Shown here in pieces: positions 5,675 through 54,790 of a stretch of 62,167 nt of DNA (its first letter is position 1; every line of letters starts with the position of its first letter). The notes beneath the pieces are model-generated. The model was not told the DNA's origin and searched no databases. It was given only the letters and a program-made list of their open reading frames with translations. The position numbers were made by a program, and so were the translations under genes. Source of the stretch: a virus (Duplodnaviria > Caudoviricetes). Location of the stretch: the IMG/VR virus record IMGVR_UViG_3300032373_000007, positions 1-62,167 of that record, one strand, 5' to 3'.

Positions 5675-5688
5675 CGTCTGTCCTGTGG

Positions 5689-6222: not shown

Positions 6223-6240
6223 GGTCAGTCCTGTGGGTCT

Positions 6241-6316: not shown

Positions 6317-6359
6317 GGTGTGGTGGGTGGCCGGATAAAGCTCCGGCGGGCTGGGGCGC

Positions 6360-18366: not shown

Positions 18367-18419
18367 GTTGGGTCCTGTGGTTGGTCGGTGGCTTCTATTC
18401 AGCTGTGGCGTGGGTGGGT

Positions 18420-18779
18420 CTAGAACGGAATCGTGTCGACGCTCTTGGCATCCTGCGCGTACCACTCGTCCATAGTCATGGCGAACCCGCCATCGAGCAC
18501 CACGTGGCCCTCGTAGACCGCGGTCACCTGCAGGGCTGCGTCATCGTTGAACCTGTGGTTGTGGACGTAGAGGTCGACTGCTGGGGGCATGGGTCGAGGC
18601 TGGCTATAGTCGGGCTTCGGCTTGGCTGGCGCCGCAGAGAAGACAGCGCAGGGCCCATGCCGGGTGCCGTCCTCAAGTTCCAGGATGCACCCAAGCCAGC
18701 GGGCCTGAACGATGCCGAGGTTCTGTTCTCCCATGAGGGAGACGAGCCAGGGGGTGAAGGGTGGAAGGTACTCGGGCAT
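18420..18779 (-). CDS. hypothetical protein ending in DTIPF
   Basis: CACAGGAGCCGACC-ATG; SSB-tail-like C-terminus. Confidence 0.65.
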   Translation of the reverse strand: MPEYLPPFTPWLVSLMGEQNLGIVQARWLGCILELEDGTRHGPCAVFSAAPAKPKPDYSQPRPMPPAVDLYVHNHRFNDDAALQVTAVYEGHVVLDGGFAMTMDEWYAQDAKSVDTIPF

Positions 18780-19692: not shown

Positions 19693-22041
19693 CTACTCTG
19701 CGTCGCTGTCGAGGGTCAGCGTCATGCGGATGCCGAGGCGCTTGGCGCTGCGTGCTGCCTCGGGCCAGAGTTTGAGGTGGCAGGAAAGGAAGCGGGCAGC
19801 CTTAGCCTCCTCTACTGCGGCGTTCCTGGGCTGGAGCGCCTCGATCTGCTCCTGCAGCCTCATGTTCTCGGCCTGGAGGGCGTCGCGAGTGTGGGCAAGG
19901 GTGCAGATGGCGTCCCCGACAGCCTTGTCGATTCGCTCCTGCACAGATGGCGTCCTGCTGGCGTCGTCCAGGACGTCGTCGCAGTCGACGCTGGGGAACT
20001 CGACCGCCCGCGCGCGGACAGCCCTGTTGAACCACCCTGCCCGGAACATCGGCTCCGCACCGGGGTCAGGCGGCAGGAAGGGCGGGGCCTTGCTCACCGT
20101 CGGCTGCTCGTTGCCCCACGGATGGCCGGTGATCTCGGACCAGCGGGCCTCGATGTCGTCGATGAGGCACCATGCTTCGCTACGGACTGTGCTGGCGGAC
20201 ATGACGTCGTGGGCGTCGGCGAGCTGGGCAGGGTCATCCTGGTGCTGCACCATCTCCTTGGCATGGGCGTACCTGTACTCCGCACGCAGCAGCTGCGCCC
20301 AGGTGGGGCCGGGCGGGGGCGGGTCATCGTCCACCAGAGCAGCCAGGGCCTCGTCGGGGGCAGGGGGCTCCTCGATGACCTCCTCCAGCTCCGGGCAGCG
20401 CACGCACGGGCCCTCGTCGTAGCCGTCGGAGATGGTGCCTGTGTCGTTGCAGAAGCCGCACTCCTCAGCAGCAGGCCCCTCCGGACCCGGGTCCTCCGGC
20501 GCTTCCACCAGGTCCGGCTGAGGCACCATCGGCGACGCGCCAAGGATGGCGTTCAGCTCTCGGGCGATGCGGGCCATGGCACCGGGGCGGATCTTGATGC
20601 GGGCGTGGTCCTGGAGCTCGCGGAGGCGGGCCACTGCGTCCTTGGTCAGGGTGTAGCCGGCTGCGTGGTCGATCTTCTCGATGGCGCGCTCGTGGGCCTC
20701 CATGTCTCGACGCACGGCCACCTGGAAGCTGTCTGTGCTGTTGTCGTGGAGGCAGGTGAGGGCATCCATGGTCTCGGTGGCGCGCACCACGGCGATGCGC
20801 TCGGTGGTGGTCTTGGCGGTGCCCCATGGGTCCATGATGTCGGGGTCCTCGATCGCATCGTAGCGCTCGTCTTCGTCGGCATCGGTCGCAGAGTCATCGA
20901 GCAGGCCACCCAGAGGCGAGGAGTCCTCCGCTTCCCACCCAGCGGCCCAGCCCTTGCGCTGCTCGTCGTCGGTGTAGGGGTTGGCATCGAGGGGCTCGCT
21001 TGCCTTGTGGGAGGCGCGGCCCTCAGCCATGGTGCGGGCGCTGATCTCGTGGGGCTGCTCGGGGCAGTAGGCGTCTGCGTAGTCGGCAGCCCGGGTCAGG
21101 GTCTCAGCACTCGCGAATTCGCCAACCACGGGCGGCTCGGGGTCCATCGCTGCGGCCCCTGCCGCCTCATCCCACCCGCGGAGCCATGCGGCCGGCTGGG
21201 ATGCGTCCCGCTTTGCGCCACCGAAGTGGGCCTCGCTGCCGGCGTACTCCAGGTCGTCGTCGTCGACAGTGATCTCCACCCTGGCCACCCTCCCCGGCCC
21301 CAGCAGCCGCACCAGGCGCCCGAGAGCATGTCCCAAGCGGTCCATCTGCGCCCCGGTCGGCTCCTCCGCTTCGATGACCTCCTGGATCGTCACCTCAGCC
21401 CCAGCCATGTCGGGCAGCTTGATCACGTCCCGCACCAGGTCCTTCAGGTCGTCGACCAGGAACCCATCGAGGCCGTGCGCCTTGAAGGCATCGCGGGCGC
21501 GGGTGGCTCGACGCCGAAGGGCGCCACGGGTCGCAGCTGCCACATCCTCGTCCTCGATGTGCTGGGGGGTGGCGTCCTCGAGCAGGTCGCCCTTGCTCTC
21601 CCGGATGTCGACGGGGGGTCGCTGCTCTGGGGTGTCCTCGGCCACAGTCTGGATGACTCCGCGGCCATCCTTCTCGTAGGCGTCGGAGGCAGCAACGGAC
21701 ACGCCGACGCCGTCCGCAGCCTCAGAGCCATCAGACTCGAAGAGGCGGAAGGTGTCGCCAGCCCGGACGGACATGAACGGCACATCGAACCACTCGCCCT
21801 CACGCTGCACTTGGGCCTTGCGGTCACGGATGGGGGGGCTCTCCGGCAGTTCGTCCTCCACCTCGGTCAGGGGGTAGTCCCAGGGCAGGGAGATGGTCTC
21901 CCCTTCGGGGGTGCTGACGGCGCGGAAGCGCTCGGAACTGTGGGGCTCGGCGAGTTCGTCGCCGGCGATCACGAGGTCGCCTTTGATGGTGGCGTAGGAC
22001 TGGCCAGGGATGGCGTCTCGGGCTTCGATGGTCGTAGGCAT
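19693..22041 (-). CDS. large acidic mosaic protein
   Basis: 782 aa; WxxGW motifs, CGFCNDTG...CVRC zinc finger, C-terminal coiled coil. Confidence 0.75.
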   Translation of the reverse strand: MPTTIEARDAIPGQSYATIKGDLVIAGDELAEPHSSERFRAVSTPEGETISLPWDYPLTEVEDELPESPPIRDRKAQVQREGEWFDVPFMSVRAGDTFRLFESDGSEAADGVGVSVAASDAYEKDGRGVIQTVAEDTPEQRPPVDIRESKGDLLEDATPQHIEDEDVAAATRGALRRRATRARDAFKAHGLDGFLVDDLKDLVRDVIKLPDMAGAEVTIQEVIEAEEPTGAQMDRLGHALGRLVRLLGPGRVARVEITVDDDDLEYAGSEAHFGGAKRDASQPAAWLRGWDEAAGAAAMDPEPPVVGEFASAETLTRAADYADAYCPEQPHEISARTMAEGRASHKASEPLDANPYTDDEQRKGWAAGWEAEDSSPLGGLLDDSATDADEDERYDAIEDPDIMDPWGTAKTTTERIAVVRATETMDALTCLHDNSTDSFQVAVRRDMEAHERAIEKIDHAAGYTLTKDAVARLRELQDHARIKIRPGAMARIARELNAILGASPMVPQPDLVEAPEDPGPEGPAAEECGFCNDTGTISDGYDEGPCVRCPELEEVIEEPPAPDEALAALVDDDPPPPGPTWAQLLRAEYRYAHAKEMVQHQDDPAQLADAHDVMSASTVRSEAWCLIDDIEARWSEITGHPWGNEQPTVSKAPPFLPPDPGAEPMFRAGWFNRAVRARAVEFPSVDCDDVLDDASRTPSVQERIDKAVGDAICTLAHTRDALQAENMRLQEQIEALQPRNAAVEEAKAARFLSCHLKLWPEAARSAKRLGIRMTLTLDSDAE

Positions 22042-22082
22042 CAGGAGAGCTCCTGTGGGTCGGTGGCTGGGATGTTGAGGGC

Positions 22083-22535
22083 TCAAACGTTGTCGAAGGC
22101 GATGGTGATGCGGGTGCCGGCCGGGACGGTCTCCAACCAGCGGTGAAGCTCATGTTCCGAGATCTGCTCGGGCCAGTCCGCTGCCAGTAGTTCCTCCGCC
22201 GTGAACCACGTCCAGTATGTGAGATCGTCTGCATCGCAGGCCGGGCAGTCGAAGTCGTGCCAGCCATGGTCCTGGCGACCGTAGCGGGCCATCACCTCGT
22301 GGTGCGCATCGGGGCTGAATCCGGCGGAGGTGCCGCGCAGGGGGAACGCCTGCAGTTCGGGCCTACGAACGCCAGCCAGCCAGCCGTACAGGGTGTAGGA
22401 CCTGCTACTCAGCCACGGGTCTGGGATCTCGTTCGAGTCAGGCGGACAGACCCACCCATCCAGCAGGCTGTGTGCTGGTCGCCAGATACCGTCGGCGCCC
22501 AGCGCTTCCGGGTAGATGTGGATATCGGCGCCCAT
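22083..22535 (-). CDS. phage hypothetical protein (MGADIH...RSYTLYGWLAGVR)
   Basis: First gene after P7; AAGGAG RBS. Confidence 0.7.
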   Translation of the reverse strand: MGADIHIYPEALGADGIWRPAHSLLDGWVCPPDSNEIPDPWLSSRSYTLYGWLAGVRRPELQAFPLRGTSAGFSPDAHHEVMARYGRQDHGWHDFDCPACDADDLTYWTWFTAEELLAADWPEQISEHELHRWLETVPAGTRITIAFDNV

Positions 22536-40445: not shown

Positions 40446-41570
40446 TCAGGCTACCGGGAACAGCACGAGGTAGCAGTTGCCGACCTCGGGGATGTTGCAG
40501 CCACCGAATCCAGCGACCATGTAGACCTCGCTGTGGAGACCCATGTTCACCGGGGGGATCAGGGTGGGCGGCAGGGAAGTCATGATGCGGACACCCTCCC
40601 GGCCCTGTCGGTAGAACAGCACGCCAGACTCGCCGGAGTCGCCCACACCCTTGAGCTCGCGGGCCACAGTCCACTTGGTGATCTGCGGGTTGGCCTTCTT
40701 GATGTACTCGAAGAGGGTGTCCGAGCCGTCGCCGATGCGCTTGCTGGTCCAGATCCGCATGATGTCGGGTGACACCTGGGCAGCGTTGCTCTCGAAGACG
40801 GTGTCCGAGTTGACGTAGGCGTAGCTGGAGGCCTCGGAGATGGCCTCGGCCATGTCGTCGGCATCCGTGGCCCGAGACATGGTCTGAGCGCTGACAGCCC
40901 GGTCGAGGAACTGGTGGTTCAGTACGCCGTCCAGGTCCAGGCTCTCGACACCCGAGTAGCCGTCATCGTTGATGCGCCGCTCCAAGATCTGGCGCATGGC
41001 CCGGACCTTCTCACCCAGCTCATCGACGCCCATGTAGTTCATGGACATCTGGCTGAAGAAGTCGACGCTGGCCTTGGTGACCAGGTAGCGCATGGGCTTG
41101 ATCAGGTCGGTCTGGCCGAGCTGCACCTCAGTCACGCCAGTGGTGCGACCGGAGCGGGTGTACTGCGCCTCACCGGTGTAGTTCCGGCGGGTCTGCTTGT
41201 AGAACAGGGCGCCGGCCTGCACCGAGGTGTCCAGGAAGAAGTCCCGGCGAAGAGACATCGGGGGCAGGGGCTCCCGGAGGATCTCGGGCAGACGCTGGGT
41301 CAGGTCCTGGTTGCCAGCGGCGCCCAGGGTGGCGTCGAAGGCATCTGCGCGCTGGTTGGTGACCGAGCACCATGCCTGCCGCAGGCGGGGCTTGAGCTGA
41401 CCGAGAGCCCAGGACTGGACGTCCACGAACTCGGAGGTGGAGCCATCGGCCCGGGTCATGGTGTGGCGGGGCGCGTTCATCGCAGCCATCGCGATCTGGG
41501 CCTGGAGCTGGCCTGGATCATCGATGGGCTGAGAGCGCCCGTGCTTGTCGACGAGGATGAAGTTGCTCAT
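40446..41570 (-). CDS. major capsid protein (DUF2184/HK97 fold)
   Basis: 374 aa; GYSG...LDGVLNH; C-terminal AGFGGCNI; position after the decoration gene. Confidence 0.85.
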   Translation of the reverse strand: MSNFILVDKHGRSQPIDDPGQLQAQIAMAAMNAPRHTMTRADGSTSEFVDVQSWALGQLKPRLRQAWCSVTNQRADAFDATLGAAGNQDLTQRLPEILREPLPPMSLRRDFFLDTSVQAGALFYKQTRRNYTGEAQYTRSGRTTGVTEVQLGQTDLIKPMRYLVTKASVDFFSQMSMNYMGVDELGEKVRAMRQILERRINDDGYSGVESLDLDGVLNHQFLDRAVSAQTMSRATDADDMAEAISEASSYAYVNSDTVFESNAAQVSPDIMRIWTSKRIGDGSDTLFEYIKKANPQITKWTVARELKGVGDSGESGVLFYRQGREGVRIMTSLPPTLIPPVNMGLHSEVYMVAGFGGCNIPEVGNCYLVLFPVA

Positions 41571-41572
41571 GA

Positions 41573-42757
41573 TCAGAGCCCCTTGATGCGCAGCTGCGCG
41601 ATGGAGTTGGCGGAGTCCACGCGGCCGGTCCATTCCATGATGGACTTGGGCAGCCACACGTAGTCGGTGCCCACGTCGTTGTAGAACTGGCCCTTGGTGG
41701 CGGTCGCGAGGGAGACCCAGACGTTGCTGTGGGCCGTGGGGCTCTGAGCGCTGCTCACCCAGCCGAAGCCGCGTGCGCCGCCCTCCACCATGCGGCCGGA
41801 GCCGTAGGCGGGATCGTCGTTGCCGAGGTTCTGGTCCTCGATGTCGTGGCGCCGCTTGGACATGCCGCGCAGCTTGGCCCGGAGGCTCGAGGTGGGGTCA
41901 TCGGGGGCGCCGGTCGTGTAGACCTTGGCCACCGTGCCGCCGCCGGAGCCGTTGACCGTGGTCGCGACATCGAACTCCTCACCCGGGTTCTCCAAGGTGT
42001 GGGTGATGTCGTTGGTGGCAACCGCTGCGACGATGCCGGTGCCGGCCCCGAAGGATGCGTTGTAGAGCGTCTCCAGGTTGGCAGCGTGGTTCGCCAGGGT
42101 GGTCGCCTGGTTGGTGTCGAACGGGGTGTCAACCGTGAACACCTGGCCTCGGAAGCTGATCGTGCTGCTCAGGCTGTCGGTGGCGGCCAGGGAGGCATAG
42201 GTCTCCGTGATGACCTGGGCGGAGAAGTCCGCAGCCACCGGCACCTTGAAGGCCTCGCGACCAGAGGCGTCGATGCCCGTGGTGATGAGGGCCCGGCCGA
42301 ACTCGATGGGGGTGGCCGCGCTTGCAGAGGTCTGCTCGGCGGGGGTGCCCAGGTCGTTCGTGGTGTCGGCGCTGTTGACCGTGAAGCCAGCCACCGGGTA
42401 GGTGGTGTTGTGCCGGCGTGCGGTCAGGTCGAGGTTGCCACCAGCGTAGGCCACGTCGAAGGCGCCGAAGCTGCCCACCGTGGGGATCTCAGCGAGGAGC
42501 AGCGCACCGAGCTCGGCCTGGGTAGCCGAAGCGTCGGTGGTGACGCTCGCGGTCTGGCCGCCGTAGCTCACCGAGTAGACGGTGGAGTTGTCCACCGTGC
42601 CGGGCACCGTGATGCGGATGACCTGCTTGGCCTGCCCGTCGGTGTTGATGCCCTCGAAGATGGCGTCGTCGCCGATCGCCTCGAAGGTGCCCAGGAAGGC
42701 GATGGCCTGCTTGGACTGGACGTTGCCAGCCCCGTAGAAGAATGCTCCGGCGCTCAC
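41573..42757 (-). CDS. head decoration/cement-like protein with inserted domains
   Basis: Between protease and MCP; IEFGRAL...GFGWV. Confidence 0.65.
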   Translation of the reverse strand: MSAGAFFYGAGNVQSKQAIAFLGTFEAIGDDAIFEGINTDGQAKQVIRITVPGTVDNSTVYSVSYGGQTASVTTDASATQAELGALLLAEIPTVGSFGAFDVAYAGGNLDLTARRHNTTYPVAGFTVNSADTTNDLGTPAEQTSASAATPIEFGRALITTGIDASGREAFKVPVAADFSAQVITETYASLAATDSLSSTISFRGQVFTVDTPFDTNQATTLANHAANLETLYNASFGAGTGIVAAVATNDITHTLENPGEEFDVATTVNGSGGGTVAKVYTTGAPDDPTSSLRAKLRGMSKRRHDIEDQNLGNDDPAYGSGRMVEGGARGFGWVSSAQSPTAHSNVWVSLATATKGQFYNDVGTDYVWLPKSIMEWTGRVDSANSIAQLRIKGL

Positions 42758-44007
42758 GAGGCACCTCCAGAGGTGTTGAACTTGTCGCCCTCACGGGCCC
42801 AAGGGTTGATGGGGGCGGGAACCTCGCCGCCGCCGCGCTCAGAGTCGCGGCGCTTCAGCGTGTAGAGGTTGCTGTTGTCGTCGTCGACGCGGGCAGCCTC
42901 GGCGCCCTTGGCGGCTTCGGCCATGGCCTCGGCAGCGCGGACACCGGCGGAGATGAAGGCGTCGCCACCCTCGATCACCTTGGCGGAGTCCATGCGCAGG
43001 GCATGGGCAGCCAGGGCGACCTTCTTGGTCTCGAGGTCAGCGCCATCGGCAGCGTCGAGCTTGAGCGTGTCCAGGATGCCATCGAGGCGGGTGGCCTCGG
43101 CAGCGTCCACGCGCGCCTGCTCGGCGAGGTCTGCGGCGTCGGCCTTGGACTTGAGGGCCTTCATGTCGGCCTTGAGCTTCGCGAGCTCCTCGTCCTTGGT
43201 GGCCATGTCCTCGTCGTACTTGGCCTTGGGGATCATCTCGCCCTTGCCCTCTTCGGCGTCGGCCCGGTCCTTGACGATACCGAGACCGTCGGCGAGTGCC
43301 TGGTCCTCGTCGTCGAGACGGGTCACGCCGAGAAGGGTGAGCAGGGAAACCAGGGATGGCTTCATCTGTGTACTCCTCTCGGAGGCAGGGTTTCCCCTGC
43401 CGGTGGTGATGCCCGCGCCAGAAACGAGAACGTCGCCGGAGTCAAGGCGGAATCGAACAGTCGAGCCCCCGCGGGCCTTGTCCACGATGGCCAGGTGGTT
43501 GACCCTCTCGCGGCCGACCTGGCTGGCGTCGTAGCGGCCGAAGCGCTCATCAACGCCGGGGGTCATGTCGAGCTTGACCTGGTAGGCCGGGCTCAGCTCT
43601 GCCTTGCCGCCCTTGGCTGCGTCGAGTGCATCCCGGCGGCGCAGGGTGAACTTGACCCGGGCATAGGCGCCCTGGGCGTCCTCGACCACCTCAGCCTCGC
43701 CATCGACATCGCCGACGGCCAGATCCCCGAAGTTGTCCGGGTTGACGAGCAGGGGGCTGCCGTCCTTGCGGGTCGGGTGGTTGTTCACCATCGCGGCCCG
43801 AGCCACCAGAGCGGCCGTGTCGATGACGGCCTGCTTGGTCACCAGTTCCCGCCACTCCGTTCCATCAGCGCGACGGTAGGACAGGATCCCCTCTCGCGCT
43901 GCGACGCCGTGGTAGTGGACTGCTCCGTCCCCATCGCGTGGGTAGGGCTTGGAGAGTTCGTAGCCCGCGAAGTCGATCCGCTGGGCGCCGGTAGGGTCAA
44001 GGGCCAT
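42754..44007 (-). CDS. prohead protease/scaffold (DUF2213)
   Basis: AAREGILSY, NNHP, ELSPAY, NHLAIVDKARGG, RLDS; coiled-coil scaffold C-terminus. Confidence 0.9.
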   Translation of the reverse strand: MALDPTGAQRIDFAGYELSKPYPRDGDGAVHYHGVAAREGILSYRRADGTEWRELVTKQAVIDTAALVARAAMVNNHPTRKDGSPLLVNPDNFGDLAVGDVDGEAEVVEDAQGAYARVKFTLRRRDALDAAKGGKAELSPAYQVKLDMTPGVDERFGRYDASQVGRERVNHLAIVDKARGGSTVRFRLDSGDVLVSGAGITTGRGNPASERSTQMKPSLVSLLTLLGVTRLDDEDQALADGLGIVKDRADAEEGKGEMIPKAKYDEDMATKDEELAKLKADMKALKSKADAADLAEQARVDAAEATRLDGILDTLKLDAADGADLETKKVALAAHALRMDSAKVIEGGDAFISAGVRAAEAMAEAAKGAEAARVDDDNSNLYTLKRRDSERGGGEVPAPINPWAREGDKFNTSGGAS

Positions 44008-44896: not shown

Positions 44897-45871
44897 TCAG
44901 AGCGTCAGGGGCACCTTGTGGTCACCCGGCAGTCCGAGCAGCGCTGCGTTCGCCTGTCGCCGCCTCTCAGCGCTCTCCATAGTGTTCTTGTCGTAGGCCT
45001 GCAGTCGCTCCTTGCTGTCCGTCTCAAGCACCGGGTCATCGAAGCAGCGGCAGCCCGGCCTCTGTCCTGGGTGGCCGTCGATGGGGTGGCCTCGACCTGC
45101 GTAGTCGAAGAGCTTGCCGTCCAGGTCCCAGTGTGAGGGCGTGGCGTCGGGGTACTTGCCCCCGGGGTTGCCCGTGACCCGCACGTCTTTCATGTTCCGC
45201 CAGCGGTACTGCCTCACCCCGAGCTGCTGCTTGCGGAGCCTGGAGATCTGTCCGTTCAGCCGGTGCATCTGGTTGCGAGCGATCCTCTCGCCGTTGTACT
45301 TCGCACCGTCCACAGGCGAGAGCTTGCCGGCGTCCCGGAAGCCTTCGTCAAGCAGGCGGGTGAGCTCGCGGTTGCTGAGCCCCTCCCGGATCCCCCGCTC
45401 CATGAGCTTCGCCACCTCGTCGTGGTAGCGCTCGTCGATGGTCTTGATCAGGGCCACGTTCTCGCGAATGAAGGCGTCGATCACATCCGGCCCACCCACG
45501 TAGGGGGGCAGGACAGACACCCGGGCGACCCGAGCCAGCTTCTTGTCGGTGTAGTCCAGGGTGCGCAGCTGGAGCTTCAGCGCGAGGTCTCGGATGTCCT
45601 CCTCGTCAGGAGCGAACTGCTCCCGGATGAATTCGCGCAGGGAGAGCATCGCCGTGATCACGGCCTGGATGTCCTCTTCCTCGGAGTCCTGGCGCGTCTC
45701 GGAGGGCCTGCGCTGAGCGTTGAGGGTCTTGGTGATCCTCGCGTCATAGAGGCGGTGCACCATGGCCGCGCGCCTCTCCAGGGCCTCCCGGTAGAGCTGC
45801 TCGATGGACGAGGGGTAGCCAGGGGGGCGGCGCCTGCTGGAGCCGTCGCAGCGCAGCGAGTGCATGACCAT
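44897..45871 (-). CDS. minor head protein (Mu gpF/SPP1 gp7 family)
   Basis: ENVALIKTI, RIARNQ..LNG, YRWR...D.RV, HPGQRPGCRC. Confidence 0.9.
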   Translation of the reverse strand: MVMHSLRCDGSSRRRPPGYPSSIEQLYREALERRAAMVHRLYDARITKTLNAQRRPSETRQDSEEEDIQAVITAMLSLREFIREQFAPDEEDIRDLALKLQLRTLDYTDKKLARVARVSVLPPYVGGPDVIDAFIRENVALIKTIDERYHDEVAKLMERGIREGLSNRELTRLLDEGFRDAGKLSPVDGAKYNGERIARNQMHRLNGQISRLRKQQLGVRQYRWRNMKDVRVTGNPGGKYPDATPSHWDLDGKLFDYAGRGHPIDGHPGQRPGCRCFDDPVLETDSKERLQAYDKNTMESAERRRQANAALLGLPGDHKVPLTL

Positions 45872-48273
45872 CAGTCCGCCTTCCGTGCCCGCTCCACCGT
45901 CTCGGTCGCGAAGGTCTTCATGGTGTCGCCACCCCAGCCCAGCCAGGACACCCAGCCCGCATCCTTCCAGGGCTCGTCCTTGTGCTCCTGGGCCACGGCC
46001 TTCGTGGCGCTCTGGGCACCATGCCGGGCGAACCACGCGGCGACCTCGACCAGGTCTTGGCCCGAGATCTTCCCGCCCTTGGCGAGCTGCCGGGCGCGGG
46101 CCCAGCCGGTGCTGGTCATGCCCTTCACCGCAGACCCGTGCTCCTCCTTCCAGGCCAGCACCTTCTGGGCGTTGCCCTTGGCGCTGGCGGGGATGGTGAA
46201 CTGCCTGCTGCGGAAGTCGGCATCTTCGCCGTCATGCCGACCAGCCAGCGGGGCGATGGTGAGCACGTCCCCGCCTCGGCGAACCTCAACCGAGCCCACA
46301 GACCACTCGATCTCGGGCACCTCAAGGGCGAGCACCACGGCCCGCTGCTCATCGGTCAGGCCAGCAGGCGCATAGCCGACGGTCAGGTGGGCGTGGAACT
46401 CGGGGAACTGCCGGGCCTGAATGAGGTCGGCGCAGTCCCGCAGGATGGCCTGGTGGAGCTGGTAGAACACGTGGCACCACACGGTCAGCACCACGGGGGT
46501 CTGGCCGTCACTCCCCTCGGAAGGCTCAAAGAGCGTGAGGCTGTCGACGCTGACCTGGGCGGGCACGCATCGCCTCGACACGTCGATGGTGCGGCGCGCG
46601 AACTCTGCGGCCTGCTCGCTCGTGAGCTTGCCGGCGTAGAGTACGGTGATGTGGGGGTCCTCCTGCTCGGGCATCTCGCCCACAATCTCCTCGACTGCTG
46701 CGCGGACACCTTGCCAGAGGGCTCGGAGGGATTCGGGCAGGGGCACCATGACCAGCGTGGATGCCTCGTCGATGGCGTCCTCTCGCTCCTGCTCTCGGGC
46801 TGCGGCGTCGGTCTCCGCAGCAGCCAGCAACCGCGCCAGCTCGGCCTCCTCAGCCGCCGCCTGCTCCTCCTCATCGAGGGGCGGAACCTCGTCGCGCCAG
46901 CCCTCGGCGCCGTAGCGGGCCGTCCTGACGCGGTCGAGTGAGATGTGCCCAGCGTCCACCGCTGCGATGTCGGCCATGGTGGTGACCTGCCGAATCTGGG
47001 CGCGCTCCAGGGGTGAGGACTTGCCGAGGGGCCGGTACTTGACTGCCAGCCGGTCGGGCTGCTCCATCCCCTGCTCGGCGATCAGGCACCGGTAGATGAA
47101 CCGCATGGGGCCCAGCATCCTCGAGGTCTGGAAGGTCGAGATGTCAGCGTGCCAGGATGCCTGCCAGGAGTCGCCGTCGGTGTTCAGTCCGCTCGGGGCC
47201 TGCCCGAAGAGCCGGGGGGCCGGGATGCGGGTGTAGAGCTGCAGCATGTTCATGGCGTGCTCTGAGAGGTCCCGGAAGCCGGAGAGCTGCACAGGTAGGC
47301 GCTCGACGTGTTCATCGTCGCCAACGAACACCGCTTGGGCGATGCTCTTCTGCTGCATCATTTGCGACAGCCAGCCGAGGAACCGGGATGAGCCATCCCC
47401 AGCGCTCTTCGCTCTTGCGTCCTTGATCTTCATCACCAGCAGCGAGATCTCCTGAGCAGCCCGAGCTCCAGCAGCACCGAGCTGCCCGACGTCCCGCACG
47501 CCGTCCCAGATGACCTGGCCCACCGCGTCGGCAGCCCCGGGCCACATCACGCCACCAGAGGCATAGGCGACAGACCTGTGGAGGTAGTCGCCGTAGAAGC
47601 GGAGCAGGCGAGAGGTATGGACTCGCTGACCGCTGCCGAGCTCTGTGATGTCGCCGGCCACGTTCGGGGTCACCGAGTAGAAGAGCGGCTGGCCACACGT
47701 CGGGGAGCGCAGGTCGGAGTCCCACTCGATGGGCGTGAACTCGTGAGGGTCGAGCACCACGATGCTGTGAACCTTGCGCACGTTCTCGGGAACGAGAGGC
47801 TTGCTCCAGTCCTTCAGCCCGTCGTCGACGACCACCAGCAGTCGGGCCTCAGCGAAGGCGCGGCCCAGGTACTGCGCGATCCTCATGCTCTCCTGGACGC
47901 CCAACTCGTCCCAGCGGTCCATGACGCTGGCGAACTCCCGCGAGCCGCCCATGATGTCCTGGCCCTCGCGGGTCGCGTCGTCGCCGAAGACGGAGCAGAT
48001 CGCCCGGTAGGGGCCACCCCGGGTCATGGCGTGGAGCTCTTGGAGGCTCAGGAAGTCGCGGGAGAGATACGGCCGCGCGGTGGCCCCCGAGTCTTTCGCC
48101 AGGCCCAGACCAGACAGGTCGTTGACCATCGAGGCACCGGACCTGGTGGCGCCCACGGCGTTGGCGTCTGCCCGGGCAGCGCTCGGCATTGGAGCAGGGG
48201 CGGGCGGCTCTGAGATCAGCACGGTCAGGGCGCGGCGGGCTCGTGCTCGGATGCCCTCGGTGGGGTCAGCCAC
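45871..48273 (-). CDS. portal (DUF1073-like) fused to a 2H phosphoesterase and a C-terminal domain
   Basis: DDATREG, VHTSRLLRF, IPAPRLFGQAPSGLN (portal); PHITV and AHLTVGY (2H); C-terminal GWARARQLA...WFARH...WLGWGG domain. Confidence 0.88.
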   Translation of the reverse strand: MADPTEGIRARARRALTVLISEPPAPAPMPSAARADANAVGATRSGASMVNDLSGLGLAKDSGATARPYLSRDFLSLQELHAMTRGGPYRAICSVFGDDATREGQDIMGGSREFASVMDRWDELGVQESMRIAQYLGRAFAEARLLVVVDDGLKDWSKPLVPENVRKVHSIVVLDPHEFTPIEWDSDLRSPTCGQPLFYSVTPNVAGDITELGSGQRVHTSRLLRFYGDYLHRSVAYASGGVMWPGAADAVGQVIWDGVRDVGQLGAAGARAAQEISLLVMKIKDARAKSAGDGSSRFLGWLSQMMQQKSIAQAVFVGDDEHVERLPVQLSGFRDLSEHAMNMLQLYTRIPAPRLFGQAPSGLNTDGDSWQASWHADISTFQTSRMLGPMRFIYRCLIAEQGMEQPDRLAVKYRPLGKSSPLERAQIRQVTTMADIAAVDAGHISLDRVRTARYGAEGWRDEVPPLDEEEQAAAEEAELARLLAAAETDAAAREQEREDAIDEASTLVMVPLPESLRALWQGVRAAVEEIVGEMPEQEDPHITVLYAGKLTSEQAAEFARRTIDVSRRCVPAQVSVDSLTLFEPSEGSDGQTPVVLTVWCHVFYQLHQAILRDCADLIQARQFPEFHAHLTVGYAPAGLTDEQRAVVLALEVPEIEWSVGSVEVRRGGDVLTIAPLAGRHDGEDADFRSRQFTIPASAKGNAQKVLAWKEEHGSAVKGMTSTGWARARQLAKGGKISGQDLVEVAAWFARHGAQSATKAVAQEHKDEPWKDAGWVSWLGWGGDTMKTFATETVERARKAD

Positions 48274-49020: not shown

Positions 49021-49049
49021 AGCATAGGCCACCACGGCCAACCGCGCTA
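49021..49049 (-). promoter_or_regulatory. sigma70-like promoter with operator (P9)
   Basis: TAGCGC-17 nt-TATGCT; operator GCCACCACGGC. Confidence 0.65.
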
Positions 49050-50648
49050 CCACCCAAACGAAGCGAACCCGCCACCCTCGTCCGTCTGCTCCCGGGTCCA
49101 CCGCATGTGTAGCTGGCTCGCGGCGTCGACGTCGTCGTCGTGCATGGCCGAGGGGCCGAAGCTCACGTGCGAGGCGATCCAGTCGCCCACCCACGGCGCG
49201 AAACTCGGCGAGGGTAGCCAGATGAGCCCGGCCTGGGCGACCGTCTCGGTGTAGCCCGCTCGCACCGGCTTGCTCTTGTCCTTGCCTGGCGTGTCCTTCT
49301 GGGGGTTGAAGGGGATGAGGGGCACCCCTGCGTAGCTCCCGCCCCTGTGCTGCATGTAGGACGTGCCGTTGGCTGCATCCTCGATGTACGCAAAGCGCGC
49401 GTAGGCCTTCCACTTCTCGATGACCGAGTCCATCGCCACCAGGAAGCCAGGCAGGTCCATCTGGTCGTGGACCCGGTCGAGCAGGTAGCGGCGGTTGTCG
49501 TCGTAGAGCGCCCAGACCTGGATGCTGTGGAAGTCGTTCTCGGTGCCGGCCTTCTTCGCGGCGTCCACCGTGATAGCCACCTCCTGGGCCCCAACAGCGA
49601 TGGAGACGGGCGCACCCTTGTAGATGTTGCTGAACCACGCCCGCTTGAACTGCGTGCCCTCCTTGGCTGTGGGGCGCATATCGAGCTGCCCGGGGGCCTG
49701 CCACCCCAGCTTCTTGCGGAGCTTGGTGACCTCCTCGCGGGGGAACAGGGCGGGGAACATGAGCTCACCCGGGGCCTCCCGTGGATCCTCGTCGTAGATG
49801 CCGCCGAGTTCCTCGGGAAACTCTGGGTCGTACTCCATCGGCAGGACCACGGCCTTCCAGTCACCCTCGGCCAGGGCCCGGCCTGCAGGGTCGATGGGGT
49901 GCAGCCGCTGCATGATGAGCAGCCAGCGGGCCTCGGCCTGGATGTTGACCCGGGTGGAGAGTCGCTGCTCGATGGCGCTGTTGGCTGCCATGCACCGCCC
50001 GAAGATGATCTCCTGCGAGCCGCTGATCACGTCGGCCACGTCCACCGGGTCGTCGATGGTGATGTCGTCGCCGCGCTCTCCGGTGTACTTGGAGCTCATG
50101 CCGAAGCACTTGCGGAAACCTCGGGCAGTGTTCTCGAAGTTCTGTTTCTCGTTCTGGTCGGCTGCGAAGTCCCAGGGCTCCTCGCTGCGACGGCGGGCGA
50201 GATCCTCGACCATCTGCCGGTAGAGCTTCGACTGCAGCACCTGGCGCGTCCTGCGGGAGTCGCGGCGGGCGAGCCGGTCAGTGCTCGAGATCACCAGTCG
50301 GCGGCGGCTCGGGCTGTGGAGCCACTCCCAGGCAGGGGCCAGGACGGAGGCCAGCAGGCTCTTGGCTGAGCCAGGCGGGAGGCAGATCAGGAGCTTGCGG
50401 TAGGCAGGGTCCCCGGTCATCTGCCGCTGGACAGCTCGGCAGACGGTGTCGAAGTGCCAGGGCCACCGGAGGCGGGCAGGCTCAACCTCAGCCCACATCA
50501 GGCGCACGAATGCTGCCAGGGACTCCGGGTCCTCCGGTCGCAGGGAGCACTCGAAGAGCCAGGCGTTGCGCCTCACGGTCTGCCGTCGCCGCTTCTCCTC
50601 TCGCCAGAGACGGGCCTGCGTCTCGATGTCCAGGGCGGCGAGAACCAT
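49047..50648 (-). CDS. terL: terminase large subunit
   Basis: CLPPGSAKS, GERGDDITIDDP, IMQRLH, TVDAA, YIEDAANG, HDDDVDA. Confidence 0.95.
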   Translation of the reverse strand: MVLAALDIETQARLWREEKRRRQTVRRNAWLFECSLRPEDPESLAAFVRLMWAEVEPARLRWPWHFDTVCRAVQRQMTGDPAYRKLLICLPPGSAKSLLASVLAPAWEWLHSPSRRRLVISSTDRLARRDSRRTRQVLQSKLYRQMVEDLARRRSEEPWDFAADQNEKQNFENTARGFRKCFGMSSKYTGERGDDITIDDPVDVADVISGSQEIIFGRCMAANSAIEQRLSTRVNIQAEARWLLIMQRLHPIDPAGRALAEGDWKAVVLPMEYDPEFPEELGGIYDEDPREAPGELMFPALFPREEVTKLRKKLGWQAPGQLDMRPTAKEGTQFKRAWFSNIYKGAPVSIAVGAQEVAITVDAAKKAGTENDFHSIQVWALYDDNRRYLLDRVHDQMDLPGFLVAMDSVIEKWKAYARFAYIEDAANGTSYMQHRGGSYAGVPLIPFNPQKDTPGKDKSKPVRAGYTETVAQAGLIWLPSPSFAPWVGDWIASHVSFGPSAMHDDDVDAASQLHMRWTREQTDEGGGFASFGW

Positions 50649-51445
50649 TACTCCTCCGTGGAGTAGTCGTCGTGGTCGAGCACGGGCCGGCGGTTGCGGA
50701 ACTCCTCGGGGGGAAGGTGGGCGAGTTCTTCGCGGGCCTGCTCTTCGACGGTGACTCCGCCGGAGTGCTTCATGTCCACCTGGTCTGCCCCCGCGTACCC
50801 GAGCGCCTTGGCCAGCGTCGCGAAGGTGTGGCGCATCTCGGTCGCCGCCTTCATGTGGGCCATGGAATCCAGCCCGATCACGTCGCCGGCCCGGTTGTAC
50901 TTGAGGGGCAGCTCGTCCTGCATGAACGCCCGCATCATGTCGACGGACTCGACGAGACCCTCGTTGGCTGCCAGGAAGGCCTCGGTCATCAGGGGGAACA
51001 CCACGGCCGCCAGACTTGAGTGCACCCTGGACAGGACTGCCGAGATCCTGGGCCTCCGCTTCCACTCGCTGGCGGTGCTTTCCGCGATACCTGCCGCCTC
51101 CGCAGCCTGCCGCTGGCTACGTGTCTGGAGCAGCACCAGCACGAAGATCTGCTCTCTCGGGTCCAGCAGCCGCAGCCCATCCTCTGCCGCCGCCATCAGG
51201 GTGGATGCATCCGGGGCCGACTTCGCTATCTTCGGGGCATCATGAGTAGCGACGGGCGTGGATGCATCCGATCGGGGGGTGGATGCATCCGGGGTCGAAG
51301 TCGCCTTGGCTCTGCGAATTCTGGACTTCAGCGTGCCCAGCGGGACGCTCCACTTGTCGGCAGCCTTGCGCTGACTCATCCCGCCCTCGACCGCCAGCAC
51401 GGCCTTGCGGATGACGTCCTCCGGTGCTGCCGCTGCGCGGGGCAT
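50648..51445 (-). CDS. terS: terminase small subunit (HTH)
   Basis: Two HTH motifs; coupled upstream of TerL; DQVDMKHSG tail. Confidence 0.75.
   Translation of the reverse strand: MPRAAAAPEDVIRKAVLAVEGGMSQRKAADKWSVPLGTLKSRIRRAKATSTPDASTPRSDASTPVATHDAPKIAKSAPDASTLMAAAEDGLRLLDPREQIFVLVLLQTRSQRQAAEAAGIAESTASEWKRRPRISAVLSRVHSSLAAVVFPLMTEAFLAANEGLVESVDMMRAFMQDELPLKYNRAGDVIGLDSMAHMKAATEMRHTFATLAKALGYAGADQVDMKHSGGVTVEEQAREELAHLPPEEFRNRRPVLDHDDYSTEE
51203..51290. repeat. three palindromic GGATGCATCC boxes in terS (candidate pac site)
   Basis: Copies at 51203, 51260 and 51281, each within GTGGATGCATCCG. Confidence 0.6.
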
Positions 51446-52389
51446 CAGTTCGCCCCCGCGAACAGCTTCCGCTGCCGAGCCCCACTCCCACGAGCTGCCA
51501 CCGCGCTCATCTCCTCCACCAGCTTCCACAGGACGCCCGGGTCTACCTCGCCCACGCCAGACGCCTCAAGTGCAGCCCTCACACGCCCAGGCCACACCCC
51601 GAAGTTCCCAGACCGGCGCTGCGCCACGCTCTCGGTGAGCTCCATTAGCTCCGCACACGTGAACTGCTGGCGCAGGGCGCGCCTCAGCCGCCTCTGCTCG
51701 TCTCGGGCAGCCCCAGGTGGGGCGATGGGCTCCTGCGGGGCGTGGAACCGCCCCAGGGCCCCTGCGTTGACGTCTGGGTGGTCCAGCTCGACCGGGAAGG
51801 CGAGGATCAACAGCCGGGTCTCCACCGACTCCAGGGACAGCCCCGTCACGTCCTGTATCTCCTCAGTGGTCAGCGCATCCCAGGTGCTGCCGGTCGCCTC
51901 CCACACAAGCCCGGCCATCTTCATCGCTGACTTCTGCATGGCGTGGGGCACGGGCCGAGCTGGGTAGGTCTTCTCGTGCCAGAGATTCACGGCGAACATG
52001 GTCCTGGTCCGCGCGTAGGTCGAGAACTGCAGCCCCCTGTCCGGGTCCCACCGCTCGGCAGCTGTGTAGAGCTGGACCCAGACTTCGCCCACCAGGTCCT
52101 GGAACTGCGGGTGCCGCGCGTGCTTCGTGAGCCAGCGGGCAGCGAAGAGCGGTTCGCCTGCCATCGCCAGGGCCCACACTGCAGCCTGGTACTGCTCGAG
52201 GAGCGCTCCCACACACTCCGGCTGTGCTGCTGGCCAGTCCGCGGCCCGGACCTGGTCGTCGAAGGTCTTGACGTCGCCGCCTGTGACCGGGATGCCTGCC
52301 CCGTGCTCGTCGAGGGTGCGCTGCACGGCCTGCCGGGCATCTCTCAGCGTCTGAGCTCGCTGGATGGCCTCGGCGTGGGTGACGCGCAT
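51445..52389 (-). CDS. phage sigma70-family RNA polymerase sigma factor
   Basis: Region 2: QDLVGEVWVQLYTAAERWDPDRGLQFSTYA; region 3-like TTEEIQDVTGLS. Confidence 0.8.
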   Translation of the reverse strand: MRVTHAEAIQRAQTLRDARQAVQRTLDEHGAGIPVTGGDVKTFDDQVRAADWPAAQPECVGALLEQYQAAVWALAMAGEPLFAARWLTKHARHPQFQDLVGEVWVQLYTAAERWDPDRGLQFSTYARTRTMFAVNLWHEKTYPARPVPHAMQKSAMKMAGLVWEATGSTWDALTTEEIQDVTGLSLESVETRLLILAFPVELDHPDVNAGALGRFHAPQEPIAPPGAARDEQRRLRRALRQQFTCAELMELTESVAQRRSGNFGVWPGRVRAALEASGVGEVDPGVLWKLVEEMSAVAARGSGARQRKLFAGAN

Positions 52390-52437: not shown

Positions 52438-52647
52438 TCATTGTAACGCCAGCGTGGCCAATGATGCACCCTCACTGCCCGAGCCGAGCTGCAGCCCCAC
52501 CCCACGAATCGCGTGGGTGAGCTCCCGCAGCCTCCGCCGCTGGGCCTGGGTCCATCCCTCGGGCCCCACCAGCTGCACCAGATCGTCTCGCTCTGCCTTC
52601 ATGGCCTCGAGGTGGGCCTGGAACTCCTCCACGTGGTCCTTGTTCAC
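52438..52647 (-). CDS. hypothetical protein
   Basis: GTG overlaps the DnaB stop. Confidence 0.5.
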   Translation of the reverse strand: MNKDHVEEFQAHLEAMKAERDDLVQLVGPEGWTQAQRRRLRELTHAIRGVGLQLGSGSEGASLATLALQ

Positions 52648-54014
52648 CACGCCCTCCCATCGCCGAAGTCGGCCGGCGTCGGCATCCTCACGACCCGCAC
52701 ATGCGCCAGGTTCTCGAATCGCGTGTACTGCCCCAGGAAGGCCAGCTTGACGGTGCCGGTGGAGCCGCCGCGCTGCTTCGCCACGATGACTTCGGCCACC
52801 CCGGGCTCGGTGGTCGTCTCTGGGTTGTAGACCTCGTCCCGGTAGATGAACATGACGCAGTCGGCGTCCTGCTCGATGGCGCCCGAGTCCCGTAGATCGC
52901 TCAGCAGCGGGCGCTTGTTCGGACGCTGCTCGCACCCTCGGTTGAGCTGGCTCAGGGCGAGCGTGGCGATGTCGAGTTCCTTGGCGACCAGCTTCAGGCC
53001 TCTGGAGATCTCCGAGATCTGCTCTTGGCGGCTCTCTCCCCGTCGGCCGCTCCCCTGCATCAGGCCGATGTAGTCGATGACGATCAGGCCAAGGCCCGGG
53101 TCGGCTCGCTTCATGCGTCGCGCCTTGCTGCGGAGCTGCATCAGGGTGAGCGCCGGGGTGTCGTCGATGTAGACGGGCAGGGCGGCGAGGGCCTCGGTGG
53201 ACTCTTGGAGGCGCTGCCAGTCGTCCCCTGTGAGGCTCGCAGTGCGCATCCGGCCGGCGTTGACTTTGCCGTGGGAGCAGAGCTGGCGGTCGACAACCTC
53301 GGACTTGCCCATCTCAAGGGAGAAGATCCCAACGCCTACGCCGGAGAGGGCGACGTTGCGAGCGATGTCCAGCGCTAAACTGGTCTTACCCATCGCAGGC
53401 CTCGCAGCCAGGATGTAGAGCTTCGTGGGCTTCAGCCCTGCCAACTTCGTGTCGAGGTCCGTGAACCCCGTGGGCATCCCCGACACGCTGTCCGGGTCCT
53501 CGTGGGCTGCGACGTGGTGGGCCCACCGCTGCGGCGCCAGCTGCGCCATCGTGGACCATGTCGACGACTGCCGGGTCTGGGTGACTACGAAGACGGTGGC
53601 TTCGGCGAAGTCTCGCAGCTCGACCGGCTCGTCAGGATCTTCGAGTGCCTTGTCGGCGATGAGCTTGCCGGCCTCCACCAGCCGCCTGGCGAGGGCTCTG
53701 CGCTGGATGATCGCGGCGTAGTATTCCAAGTTCTCGGTGCTGGGGACACCGTCAGGCAGTGCAGTGAAGTAGGCATGTCCGCCGAAGGCATCGGCGTCCT
53801 CGGCTGCGCGCTCGAAGACGGCCAGCGCATCGCACGGCTCACCCTTGCGGGCCATGTCGAGCATCAGCCTGAAGAGCTTCTGGTGGGCCTCGCGGTAGAA
53901 GTCGCCCGGTTCGAGCATGTCGGCGATGTCAGAGAGCCGCTCGGGGTCGAGCATCAGCCCGCCGAGGACGGCACGCTCGGACTCGGGGCTCTGGGGCAGT
54001 GGTCGGGTGGTCAT
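52644..54014 (-). CDS. dnaB: replicative DNA helicase DnaB
   Basis: PQSPESERAVLGGLM, AARPAMGKT, FSLEM, IVIDY, LSQLNR, SDLRDSGAIEQDAD. Confidence 0.97.
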   Translation of the reverse strand: MTTRPLPQSPESERAVLGGLMLDPERLSDIADMLEPGDFYREAHQKLFRLMLDMARKGEPCDALAVFERAAEDADAFGGHAYFTALPDGVPSTENLEYYAAIIQRRALARRLVEAGKLIADKALEDPDEPVELRDFAEATVFVVTQTRQSSTWSTMAQLAPQRWAHHVAAHEDPDSVSGMPTGFTDLDTKLAGLKPTKLYILAARPAMGKTSLALDIARNVALSGVGVGIFSLEMGKSEVVDRQLCSHGKVNAGRMRTASLTGDDWQRLQESTEALAALPVYIDDTPALTLMQLRSKARRMKRADPGLGLIVIDYIGLMQGSGRRGESRQEQISEISRGLKLVAKELDIATLALSQLNRGCEQRPNKRPLLSDLRDSGAIEQDADCVMFIYRDEVYNPETTTEPGVAEVIVAKQRGGSTGTVKLAFLGQYTRFENLAHVRVVRMPTPADFGDGRAW

Positions 54015-54040
54015 GGTCGGTGTCCTGTGGGCGTTGGGGT

Positions 54041-54790
54041 CTATCTGGCCTTGAGTAGGGTGAGCTGGAATCTCGTGGAACGATGGTAGAACACCTCGCG
54101 GGATACCCCTGTGCGACCTCTGCCCTTGGTGCTCTTGAGGTCGAGCGCTCCTGTCCAGGGCAGCCAGTCCGCCCCCTCCTGGTCGCAGGCGACGATCTGG
54201 CCCTTGCGCTCCAGGACCCACCGCCCGAGCGCGTGGTGGTCGTCGACGGTGTGCGGGTAGTGGCTCCCTGCGGGAGTCTGGTAGGTGGGGTCGACGAACC
54301 ACGTGGCCTCGATGTCAGGCGCCTCGCGGTAGTCGCCCTCGATGACTTGCCAGTGTCGGATCTGGTCGACATGGCCGGCAATGCGCTGACGGGCTCGCTG
54401 GCCCCACCCCCACTTGACCGTGCCGTCGACCTCGCAGTCGGTCCAGCGGGTGGGGGTCTTGCGTGGCTGAGCAGCCCCGTTGTTGCACCAGAAGCCAGCC
54501 AGCCAGCGTGCCTCTTGGCACACGCCCATGTCGTCGACCGTGCCACCCTCGGGGATGTCGGGCAGGGATAGGATCTCAGCGGCCGGCGTCGCGATGAGGT
54601 AGCGCCAGATCCCGCAGATGACCGGCGAGATGTCGATGCCGATGACTTTGCGGTTGGCGTAGCGGCTCGAGAACCCGCCTGCCCCGAAGAAGGGTTCGAC
54701 GATGGTGTTGCACTCGGGCTCTGGGTAGCGTGGGGCTGCCCTCCACTTGCCACCGTAGTAGCGCCAGAACGGTGGCACCTGGGTTCTCAT
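54041..54790 (-). CDS. DNA adenine methyltransferase (Dam/D12-like)
   Basis: YYGGKW, VEPFFGAG, FVDPTY. Confidence 0.8.
   Translation of the reverse strand: MRTQVPPFWRYYGGKWRAAPRYPEPECNTIVEPFFGAGGFSSRYANRKVIGIDISPVICGIWRYLIATPAAEILSLPDIPEGGTVDDMGVCQEARWLAGFWCNNGAAQPRKTPTRWTDCEVDGTVKWGWGQRARQRIAGHVDQIRHWQVIEGDYREAPDIEATWFVDPTYQTPAGSHYPHTVDDHHALGRWVLERKGQIVACDQEGADWLPWTGALDLKSTKGRGRTGVSREVFYHRSTRFQLTLLKAR

Follow-up and report, generated by a model that had tools for sequence, protein, structure and literature searches.

A phage portal protein carrying a LigT-like 2H phosphoesterase domain and an unnamed, conserved helical domain at its C terminus

Phosphoesterase domains of the 2H superfamily that are fused to phage portal or MuF proteins have been described previously. 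In the passages that deal with these fusions, Iyer, Burroughs, Anand, de Souza, and Aravind (2017; PMC5512222) report that such 2H domains are never linked to RNA ligases and propose for them either an RNase role or the postinjection degradation of 2'-5' oligoadenylate or cyclic-nucleotide defense signals; the corresponding part of a later paper (Iyer et al. 2022; PMC9503650) repeats this prediction. The published role is itself a computational prediction. Here, we describe a related fusion from the viral record IMGVR_UViG_3300032373_000007 (Duplodnaviria; Caudoviricetes), a 62,167-bp sequence of 67% G+C and approximately 70% completeness that was analyzed in full and is referred to below as the window. 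On its minus strand, an uninterrupted open reading frame (ORF) of 800 amino acids (aa), at positions 45871 to 48273, encodes a portal protein that is followed by a 2H domain and then by a third domain without a name, here called X. Like the described fusions, this protein carries its 2H domain on the portal within a terminase-portal module, and searches of the record revealed no RNA ligase; unlike them, it additionally carries X. The portal-2H part is an already described type, previously predicted to comprise injected effectors, and X is the less ordinary part of the fusion.

Two other systems invite comparison. The Acb1 proteins (phage T4 and Erwinia phage FBB1; PF23474; Protein Data Bank [PDB] entries 7t26 and 7t27) are, like the domain in the window, phage-encoded members of the 2H superfamily with two HxT motifs, and a related role is plausible; however, the window domain is larger, is LigT-like in its topology, and is not free-standing but part of a portal fusion. 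The T4 proteins Alt and IPI are effectors that travel in the phage head and are injected alongside the DNA, as recounted in the relevant passages of PMC5512222. The modules described here are likewise proposed to be head-carried cargo, but the T4 proteins are encoded by separate genes and have a capsid-targeting leader, whereas the cargo considered here is part of the portal polypeptide. T4 internal proteins are trimmed by the T4 prohead protease. We postulate, with a probability of about one-half, that the 2H domain and X ride as cargo on the portal end that faces inward, that the prohead protease sets them free, and that they then travel in the head and serve against host defenses.

A portal gene with two C-terminal modules

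Residues 85 to 435 of the protein match the Pfam family Phage_portal_3 (PF06381, formerly DUF1073) over model positions 9 to 355 of 357 (E = 2.5e-47; 161.7 bits against a threshold of 33.8). The ORF also matches the portal family phrog_146 (E = 2.1e-64), and both in the window and in related loci, the portal gene sits in the head module beside the large terminase gene. Its G+C content at third codon positions (0.87) is similar to that of the adjacent genes. When the whole protein was compared with GenBank phages by tblastn, 506 records matched, in each case through the portal part only (residues 42 to 462), and no record covered 80% or more of the 800-aa query. No match to a 7-kb region was found among GenBank phages by blastn, and a search for related loci that used the single protein as the query was also negative.

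The identical 800-aa protein is also present on contigs from other sources, and the same parts recur in its relatives. A search with residues 480 to 800 retrieved 36 proteins, onto each of which the three parts were mapped. The order portal-2H-X was seen in 2 of them (one being the protein's own cluster), portal-X-2H was seen in 17, and portal-X without a 2H domain was seen in 6; one further protein carried X-2H, with a portal detected by Pfam only, and in the remaining 10, X was found on other proteins, which include portals of other Pfam families (Phage_portal and Portal_Mu). Accordingly, a portal combined with 2H, X, or both was present in 26 of the 35 non-self matches, one of these with the portal detected by Pfam only. 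Mapping across 30 IMG/VR loci, some of which are near-duplicates, gave 29 ORFs (27 portal ORFs and 2 with X only), and 22 of the 29 had a portal with 2H and/or X: portal-2H in 13, portal-X-2H in 6, and portal-X in 3, with the portal alone in another 5. The 176 X-bearing proteins that were stored comprised 28 with portal-X, 20 with portal-X-2H, 3 with portal-2H-X, 3 with X-2H, 2 with 2H-X, and 120 in which X was accompanied by neither a portal nor a 2H domain.

Because the identical protein occurs on other contigs and portal, 2H, and X layouts recur in relatives, an assembly artifact, which the original prediction had raised as a possible undoing of its case, is excluded. Judged from the sequence comparisons, the variety of these layouts makes 2H and X independent accessory modules, subject to gain, loss, and reordering. 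We conclude that this is a genuine portal gene that has acquired two separately folding accessory modules at its C terminus on flexible linkers. With a portal, a 2H domain, and X, the ORF unites at least two effector-type domains and a virion protein in one polypeptide, which is the arrangement by which polyvalent-type proteins are recognized.

The original prediction, made from the sequence before these comparisons, had described the ORF as a portal fused to a 2H phosphoesterase and a third domain, and Pfam, PHROG, and model evidence now stands behind all three; with both HxT motifs conserved throughout and both extra domains modeled confidently, the case goes far beyond chance. The acidic linker and both HxT motifs are where it had placed them (Table 1), and its statement that portal-2H fusions exist agrees with the relevant parts of PMC5512222 and PMC9503650. 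The interval that it gave, 45871 to 46760, covers the 2H domain and the third domain; the whole gene extends to 48273.

Three relatives (P0015, P0017, and P0023) have an extra insert of approximately 170 to 220 aa between the portal and X, with a Cys/His-rich stretch that resembles a zinc ribbon. A portal tail can therefore carry three or more modules.

The 2H phosphoesterase domain

The second part of the fusion was recognized by the Pfam families 2_5_RNA_ligase2 (residues 513 to 666; E = 1.2e-9) and LigT_PEase (residues 513 to 585; E = 3.3e-6). Its two HxT motifs lie approximately 90 residues apart, and all 28 of the aligned 2H domains keep both. An AlphaFold model built from this 28-sequence alignment had a predicted local distance difference test (pLDDT) score of 94.3, and when it was compared with the PDB by use of Foldseek, 48 matches were obtained at an E value of 1e-3 or less, all of them 2H enzymes among the matches listed. 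The top matches were human Usb1 (template-modeling score [TMq], 0.71), Thermus TT0787 (0.70), Pyrococcus PH0099 (0.70), and Escherichia coli LigT (0.66). The cellular LigT/ThpR 2',3'-cyclic phosphodiesterases (CPDases) and Usb1 (5ldm, 1iuh, 1vdx, and 5v1m) thus resemble the window domain in structure (TMq, 0.66 to 0.71; E = 4e-7 to 1e-5) and provide its best Pfam families; they differ from it in that the identity is only 14 to 18% and in that the window domain has a viral head context. A Burkholderia phage phosphodiesterase and a poxvirus cyclic GMP-AMP (cGAMP) phosphodiesterase gave TMq values of 0.44 to 0.51. On the strength of the model, the domain is a 2H enzyme of the LigT/Usb1/CPDase type with an intact catalytic dyad and is predicted to be active. 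The 2H fold on which the original prediction depended, with its two beta-sheet lobes and their flanking helices, is present.

The same cannot be said of its description of this domain as Acb1-like, insofar as family membership was meant. Were the domain an Acb1-family nuclease acting against the cyclic oligonucleotide-based antiphage signaling system (CBASS), it would be expected to cleave 3'3'-cGAMP or cyclic triadenylate (cA3). The two share a superfamily and the HxT dyad, the Acb1 structures are significant Foldseek matches (7t27 and 7t26, ranked 46 and 48; E = 4.9e-4 for 7t27), and the slot beside X is occupied by a true Acb1 domain in 4 of 81 X-bearing proteins, which suggests an analogous role. 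However, the window domain failed the threshold of the Pfam Acb1 model (PF23474), with 14.1 bits against the 27 required (E = 0.04), whereas the true Acb1 domains of other X-bearing proteins scored 78 to 114 bits. The TMq values for Acb1 were 0.45 to 0.46, compared with approximately 0.70 for LigT/Usb1, and alignment with the true Acb1 domains by hhalign, at a probability of 63%, was confined to 44 columns in the region of the second HxT motif. The domain comprises approximately 180 aa with a LigT-like topology, as opposed to the compact Acb1 fold of approximately 150 aa with a C-terminal lid that is described in the structural passages of PMC9117128. Since LigT and Usb1 are its nearest structural neighbors and the tests for Acb1 failed, the domain is LigT-like and not a member of the Acb1 family, and we regard an Acb1-type nuclease as very unlikely.

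If the nearest structures are taken at face value, the domain may instead act on RNA, either as a CPDase that repairs the RNA cuts made by host anticodon nucleases or as a Usb1-like RNase that attacks host RNA. Its best structural matches (Usb1, LigT/ThpR, and archaeal or Thermus LigT-like proteins) and its best sequence families (2_5_RNA_ligase2, LigT, and, weakly, TIGR02258) point in this direction, an RNase role is one of the options listed by Iyer et al. in the passages cited above (PMC5512222), and a free-standing X gene in Pseudomonas phage PaBG adjoins an RNA 2'-phosphotransferase gene. Several observations argue the other way. The record, which is approximately 70% complete, yielded neither an Rnl2-family RNA ligase (PF09414) nor RtcB; a search for a T4 Rnl1-type ligase (PF09511) was also negative but uninformative, since the control genomes were silent as well. 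The cutoff of TIGR02258, the ThpR/LigT equivalog model, was not reached (23.5 bits against 65.7), and there is no obvious reason to fuse a healing enzyme to a portal. The sole KptA-like signal, a PTS_2-RNA (KptA/Tpt1) match at positions 17683 to 18012 within the minus-strand ORF at 17119 to 18465, scored 17.2 bits against a cutoff of 26 and did not reappear when the whole ORF was scanned with hmmscan; the ORF may encode a divergent protein with an ADP-ribosyltransferase (ART) fold. On balance, we consider an RNA substrate unlikely.

The fold alone does not give the substrate, and a role in the degradation of nucleotide signals is possible. PADLOC models matched neither the 2H domain nor X, and a word-based search of limited sensitivity found no free-standing 2H relatives of 103 to 329 aa at an E value of 1e-3 or less.

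Domain X

The sole family match of X is to phrog_2859 (E = 7e-11; positions 162 to 267), a family to which no function has been assigned. Against Pfam at E values up to 10, only MvaT_DBD was recovered (16 bits, below its cutoff), and NCBIfam gave no match. A Foldseek search of the PDB returned 0 matches at an E value of 1e-3 or less (best TMq, 0.29), a profile search of the PDB returned only chance-level kinase matches (E = 0.011), and comparison with the Atlas returned unnamed viral clusters only, with the nearest named entries, DUF6321 (0.86) and DUF5824 (0.85), falling under the reliable range. The model of X, based on 33 sequences, is all-helical with a pLDDT of 96.4 and matches 53 predicted viral structures in BFVD; the carriers of these are prohead proteases, portals (including a haloarchaeal virus portal), and Hva1_TUDOR, ParB, HAD-like, and Dps-annotated proteins. 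The third domain of the original prediction, which had offered no function for it, is real: X is a helical module of approximately 105 aa from a very large unnamed phage family.

The size of this family is apparent from a scan of 1.84 billion representative proteins, in which X was found in at least 1,489 representative clusters at an E value of 1e-3 or less and in 431 at 1e-10 or less. X-bearing proteins range from 111 to 1,829 aa, and X lies internally in 75 of the 176 stored proteins, at the C terminus in 65, at the N terminus in 29, and essentially alone in 7. The columns G-W-x-R-A-x-Q, R-H, P-W-x-D-x-G, and W-G-G were invariant in 33 sequences and again in 81, and the X of the window has all of them; the motifs that had originally been picked out in this domain (GWARARQLA...WFARH...WLGWGG) were found at residues 723 and 777. 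X retains 45 to 70% identity across highly varied carriers.

When 81 X-bearing proteins were scanned with Pfam, 35 proved to be portals (Phage_portal_3, 29; Phage_portal, 3; Portal_Mu, 2; and Phage_portal_2, 1), and protease domains were also common (Peptidase_S78_2, 10; DUF2213, 4; Mu-like_Pro, 3; and ClpP, 1). The 2H superfamily was represented by 2_5_RNA_ligase2 in 8 proteins and by true Acb1 in 4 (best E, 5.5e-33). Among small domains, there were 9 instances of DUF5824, 5 of ChaB, and 4 of Hva1_TUDOR, the three with which this segment of phrog_2859 travels; the others were ART-PolyVal (2), Topoisom_I (2), DNA ligase (2), and InPase (1). In four XkdF-type prohead proteases (P0061, P0062, P0112, and P0135), ChaB, Acb1, DUF5824, and X precede the protease domain in varying order. 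DUF5824 adjoins X in 17 of the 176 proteins; homology between the two was ruled out by hhalign (probability, 1.4%).

In deposited phages, X is rare: it was found in 24 of 50,697 GenBank records, from haloarchaeal viruses, Synechococcus and Vibrio phages, and jumbo phages, and this rarity in cultured phages explains why it has been overlooked. Among cultured phages, X is carried on a head protein by Synechococcus phage S-CBS1 (gp04), by Haloarcula tailed virus 3 and Halorubrum tailed virus 28 (on the portal), and by Vibrio phages. Cellular genomes, in which X is likewise rare, contributed 16 loci from many phyla. In Synechococcus phage S-CBS1 (NC_016164; locus 3941 to 6451), the 836-aa "major head protein" gp04 starts with X (match at 4001 to 4285), so that a capsid-protein polyprotein, too, can carry X at its N terminus. 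In PaBG (NC_022096; locus 2582 to 3324), the free-standing X gene is annotated "putative DNA-binding protein" and lies right after the putative RNA 2'-phosphotransferase gene and ahead of topoisomerase II genes, outside any head module. No name for X was found in Pfam, NCBIfam, or PHROGs or in the relevant passages of the published work on head-packaged effectors, the figures and supplements of which may depict it. In literature searches, we found no paper that names X or describes fusions of Acb1 to prohead proteases and none on DUF5824, and none was apparent on DUF2213 protease specificity or on the structure of the BCSR5 phosphodiesterase.

One explanation for these distributions may be that 2H and X serve the head itself, as structural or DNA-handling accessories, such as internal DNA-binding proteins or docking domains for assembly, with no counterdefense role. 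X is mildly basic (median pI of 9.4 and median net charge of +4 across the 176 domains), the PaBG annotation points to DNA binding, and X fusions are almost exclusively with head-assembly proteins. However, the modules are dispensable, since both are missing from 5 of the 27 portal ORFs that were mapped in related loci, and the catalytic dyad of the 2H domain is strictly kept. Furthermore, X keeps an identity of 50 to 70% on portals from four Pfam families that are unrelated to one another and on proteases of several families, which argues against a coevolving, phage-specific partner. A purely structural role is, in our judgment, quite improbable.

Candidate processing and the fate of the modules

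The C terminus of a portal forms a crown that faces the capsid interior, and members of the X family recur as fusions with proteins destined for the interior of proheads, namely, portals, prohead proteases, and MuF/polyvalent proteins. In the mechanism that we consider most likely, twelve copies of each module would enter the prohead along with the portal, and the prohead protease, encoded two genes downstream, would clip the linkers at R-x-D-[A/S/G], a step suggested by conservation of the motif. The released modules would then stay in the head and be expelled into the next host with the DNA, and copies that fail to assemble may in addition be active in the cytoplasm at a late stage of infection. 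The 2H domain would hydrolyze nucleotide phosphodiester bonds; its likeliest substrates would be host immune second messengers, either cyclic oligonucleotides or 2'-5'-linked species, and, less probably, it may act on RNA 2',3'-cyclic ends. More speculatively, X may be a cotraveling effector or ligand-binding module with a target that is common to very different hosts.

The proposal that R-x-D tripeptides are prohead-protease sites goes back to the original prediction, which had noted RED (residue 497) and RHD (residue 679), both of which do lie in linkers. In this record, R-x-D occurs 22 times in the 1,944 aa of four head proteins, compared with 45 times in the 13,954 aa of the other ORFs (p = 9e-6), but 13 of the 22 are in the protease alone, and an Arg-rich composition confounds the enrichment. 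R-x-D-A occurs 7 times in the same head proteins and 4 times in the other ORFs (Fisher p = 8.7e-5), a count to be read with the provisos that the motif was partly chosen and refined after the data had been inspected and that the sequences counted are homologous. R-x-D is present at the propeptide-boundary column of the capsid protein in 9 of 9 relatives, despite variable flanking sequence. In 50 related portal fusions, R-x-D-[A/S/G] was found at the N-terminal boundary of the 2H domain in 20 of 22 cases, at its C-terminal boundary in 12 of 22, and at the N-terminal boundary of X in 23 of 50, compared with a background of approximately 5% per scanned segment. The motifs that flank the 2H domain lie in coil that was modeled with lower confidence; for the stretch that holds R-E-D-A, the first block has a low pLDDT. 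The linkers of the XkdF lineage repeat another motif instead, V-H-V-P (of the S-V-H-V-P type), which occurs 6 times in 7,642 aa, compared with 0 times in 36,953 aa of the portal family, a comparison between lineages that differ in composition; S-V-H-V-P is possibly the processing site of the XkdF-type protease lineage. The two patterns fit lineage-specific protease sites, and R-x-D-[A/S/G] fits candidate release by the prohead protease, although a motif alone does not amount to proof. Circumstantially, the earlier proposal is thus supported (by head-protein enrichment, the capsid boundary, and the module boundaries), with cleavage itself remaining putative. C-terminal trimming of portals by prohead proteases has precedents in phages T5 (pb7) and Mu (gpH).

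A different timing is also conceivable, in which the modules act late in the producing cell: if CBASS is switched on by prohead-protease activity, then fusion to head proteins would time the countermeasure to the trigger. The part of the Hobbs and Kranzusch preprint (2026; 10.64898/2026.03.04.709575) that bears on this point reports that prohead proteases cleave and activate cGAS/DncV-like nucleotidyltransferases (CD-NTases) late in infection. In keeping with this timing, the four XkdF-type proteins mentioned above join true Acb1 to a prohead protease in one polypeptide, and the portal gene appears to be translationally coupled into the head operon. On the other hand, late expression does not require a fusion, and the inward-facing end of the portal, together with candidate cleavage motifs that are shared with the capsid propeptide, points to encapsidation. 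Such fusions are not mentioned in the preprint ("fused," "fusion," and "portal" have 0 occurrences). Late action is also compatible with injection, so the two do not exclude each other; as the explanation for the fusion, we rate it as somewhat unlikely.

Besides the provisos attached to the motif counts, which also weigh against it, the reading of the modules as protease-released, head-borne cargo faces several difficulties. R-x-D could be a conserved structural or linker feature instead of a cleavage site. Packaging, cleavage, ejection, and substrate are all inferred, and a folded 20-kDa domain would need to be unfolded for passage through the tail. The nearest structural neighbors of the 2H domain are the RNA-end-processing enzymes Usb1 and LigT, not Acb1; because the record is only approximately 70% complete, the absence of an RNA ligase is weak evidence. 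Finally, X also occurs as a free-standing protein outside head modules, as in phage PaBG.

The head module runs on the minus strand in the order terL-portal-MuF-protease-orf394-capsid protein, and the same order is found in related IMG/VR loci (Table 1). The portal stop codon and the MuF ATG overlap by one base (TGATG; positions 45869 to 45873), which suggests that the two genes are translationally coupled; the true start of MuF is probably not that of the longer ORF listed from 46036. The position of the 394-aa ORF is kept in 12 related loci, and its product may be a decoration or second shell protein. Elsewhere in the window, a 797-aa ORF on the minus strand (19693 to 22086) with no PHROG match contains a ribosome modulation factor (RMF; PF04957) segment at residues 344 to 386 (30.1 bits against a cutoff of 27.9); an RMF-like piece within a large phage protein is unusual.

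Table 1. Features of the portal fusion gene and of the surrounding head module (res, residues)
Feature	Position	Strand	Remarks
Whole gene, portal + linker + 2H + X	45871..48273	(-)	800 aa; stop codon 45871-45873
Portal domain, res 1-465	46879..48273	(-)	Phage_portal_3 / phrog_146
Acidic Ala-rich linker, res 466-504	46762..46878	(-)	Acidic stretch from res 467; contains R-E-D-A
R-E-D-A motif, res 497-500	46774-46785	(-)	In portal/2H linker
2H phosphoesterase domain, res 505-683	46225..46761	(-)	LigT/Usb1-like; Pfam, AlphaFold model, Foldseek
HxT motif 1, HITV, res 541-544	46642..46653	(-)	Catalytic, predicted; 28/28 aligned domains
HxT motif 2, HLTV, res 629-632	46378..46389	(-)	Catalytic, predicted; 28/28 aligned domains
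R-H-D-G motif, res 679-682	46228..46239	(-)	2H/X junction; candidate processing site
Domain X, res 684-800 (117 aa)	45874..46224	(-)	All-helical, unnamed, strongly conserved; phrog_2859
MuF-like head morphogenesis gene	44897..45871	(-)	Pfam Phage_Mu_F; phrog_324
Prohead protease (DUF2213 / phrog_530)	42754..44007	(-)	Scaffold-like tail with 13 R-x-D tripeptides
394-aa ORF, phrog_33525 (unknown function)	41573-42757	(-)	Between protease and capsid gene
Major capsid protein	40446..41657	(-)	phrog_264 match over res 108-389; R-A-D-A at res 103-106
Capsid-protein R-A-D-A, res 103-106 of listed ORF	41340-41351	(-)	5 residues ahead of HK97-fold match start (res 108)
Large terminase, start codon uncertain	49047..51065	(-)	Pfam Terminase_6C; upstream of portal
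Sigma-70 region 2 protein	51445-52389	(-)	Upstream of head module
DnaB-type replicative helicase	52644-54302	(-)	Upstream of head module

Should the modules indeed be cut from the portal and leave the head together with the DNA, a delivery route that is known so far only from computational prediction, in which counterdefense enzymes ride on the portal itself, would gain direct evidence. If confirmed, R-x-D-[A/S/G] would define the specificity of the DUF2213-type prohead protease. Prohead proteases are reported to switch on CBASS in the relevant part of the 2026 preprint, and the fusions considered here place 2H or Acb1 domains on portals or on those very proteases. A bolder reading, which we offer only tentatively and regard as doubtful, is that X is an unrecognized, very widespread, and unusually conserved capsid-borne counterdefense module of unsolved fold in the tailed viruses of bacteria and archaea. 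Together with 2H or Acb1, it would form cleavable "beads on a string" on the prohead protease or portal that host immunity senses, so that countermeasures would be preloaded or coreleased where and when CBASS-type signaling starts, with X binding or neutralizing a target common to widely differing hosts, for example, an immune nucleotide or a nucleic-acid end. Of the parts of this fusion, it is X that may matter more, as a large phage family, strongly conserved, whose fold is confidently predicted but has no counterpart among solved structures and which is absent from Pfam, NCBIfam, and PADLOC.

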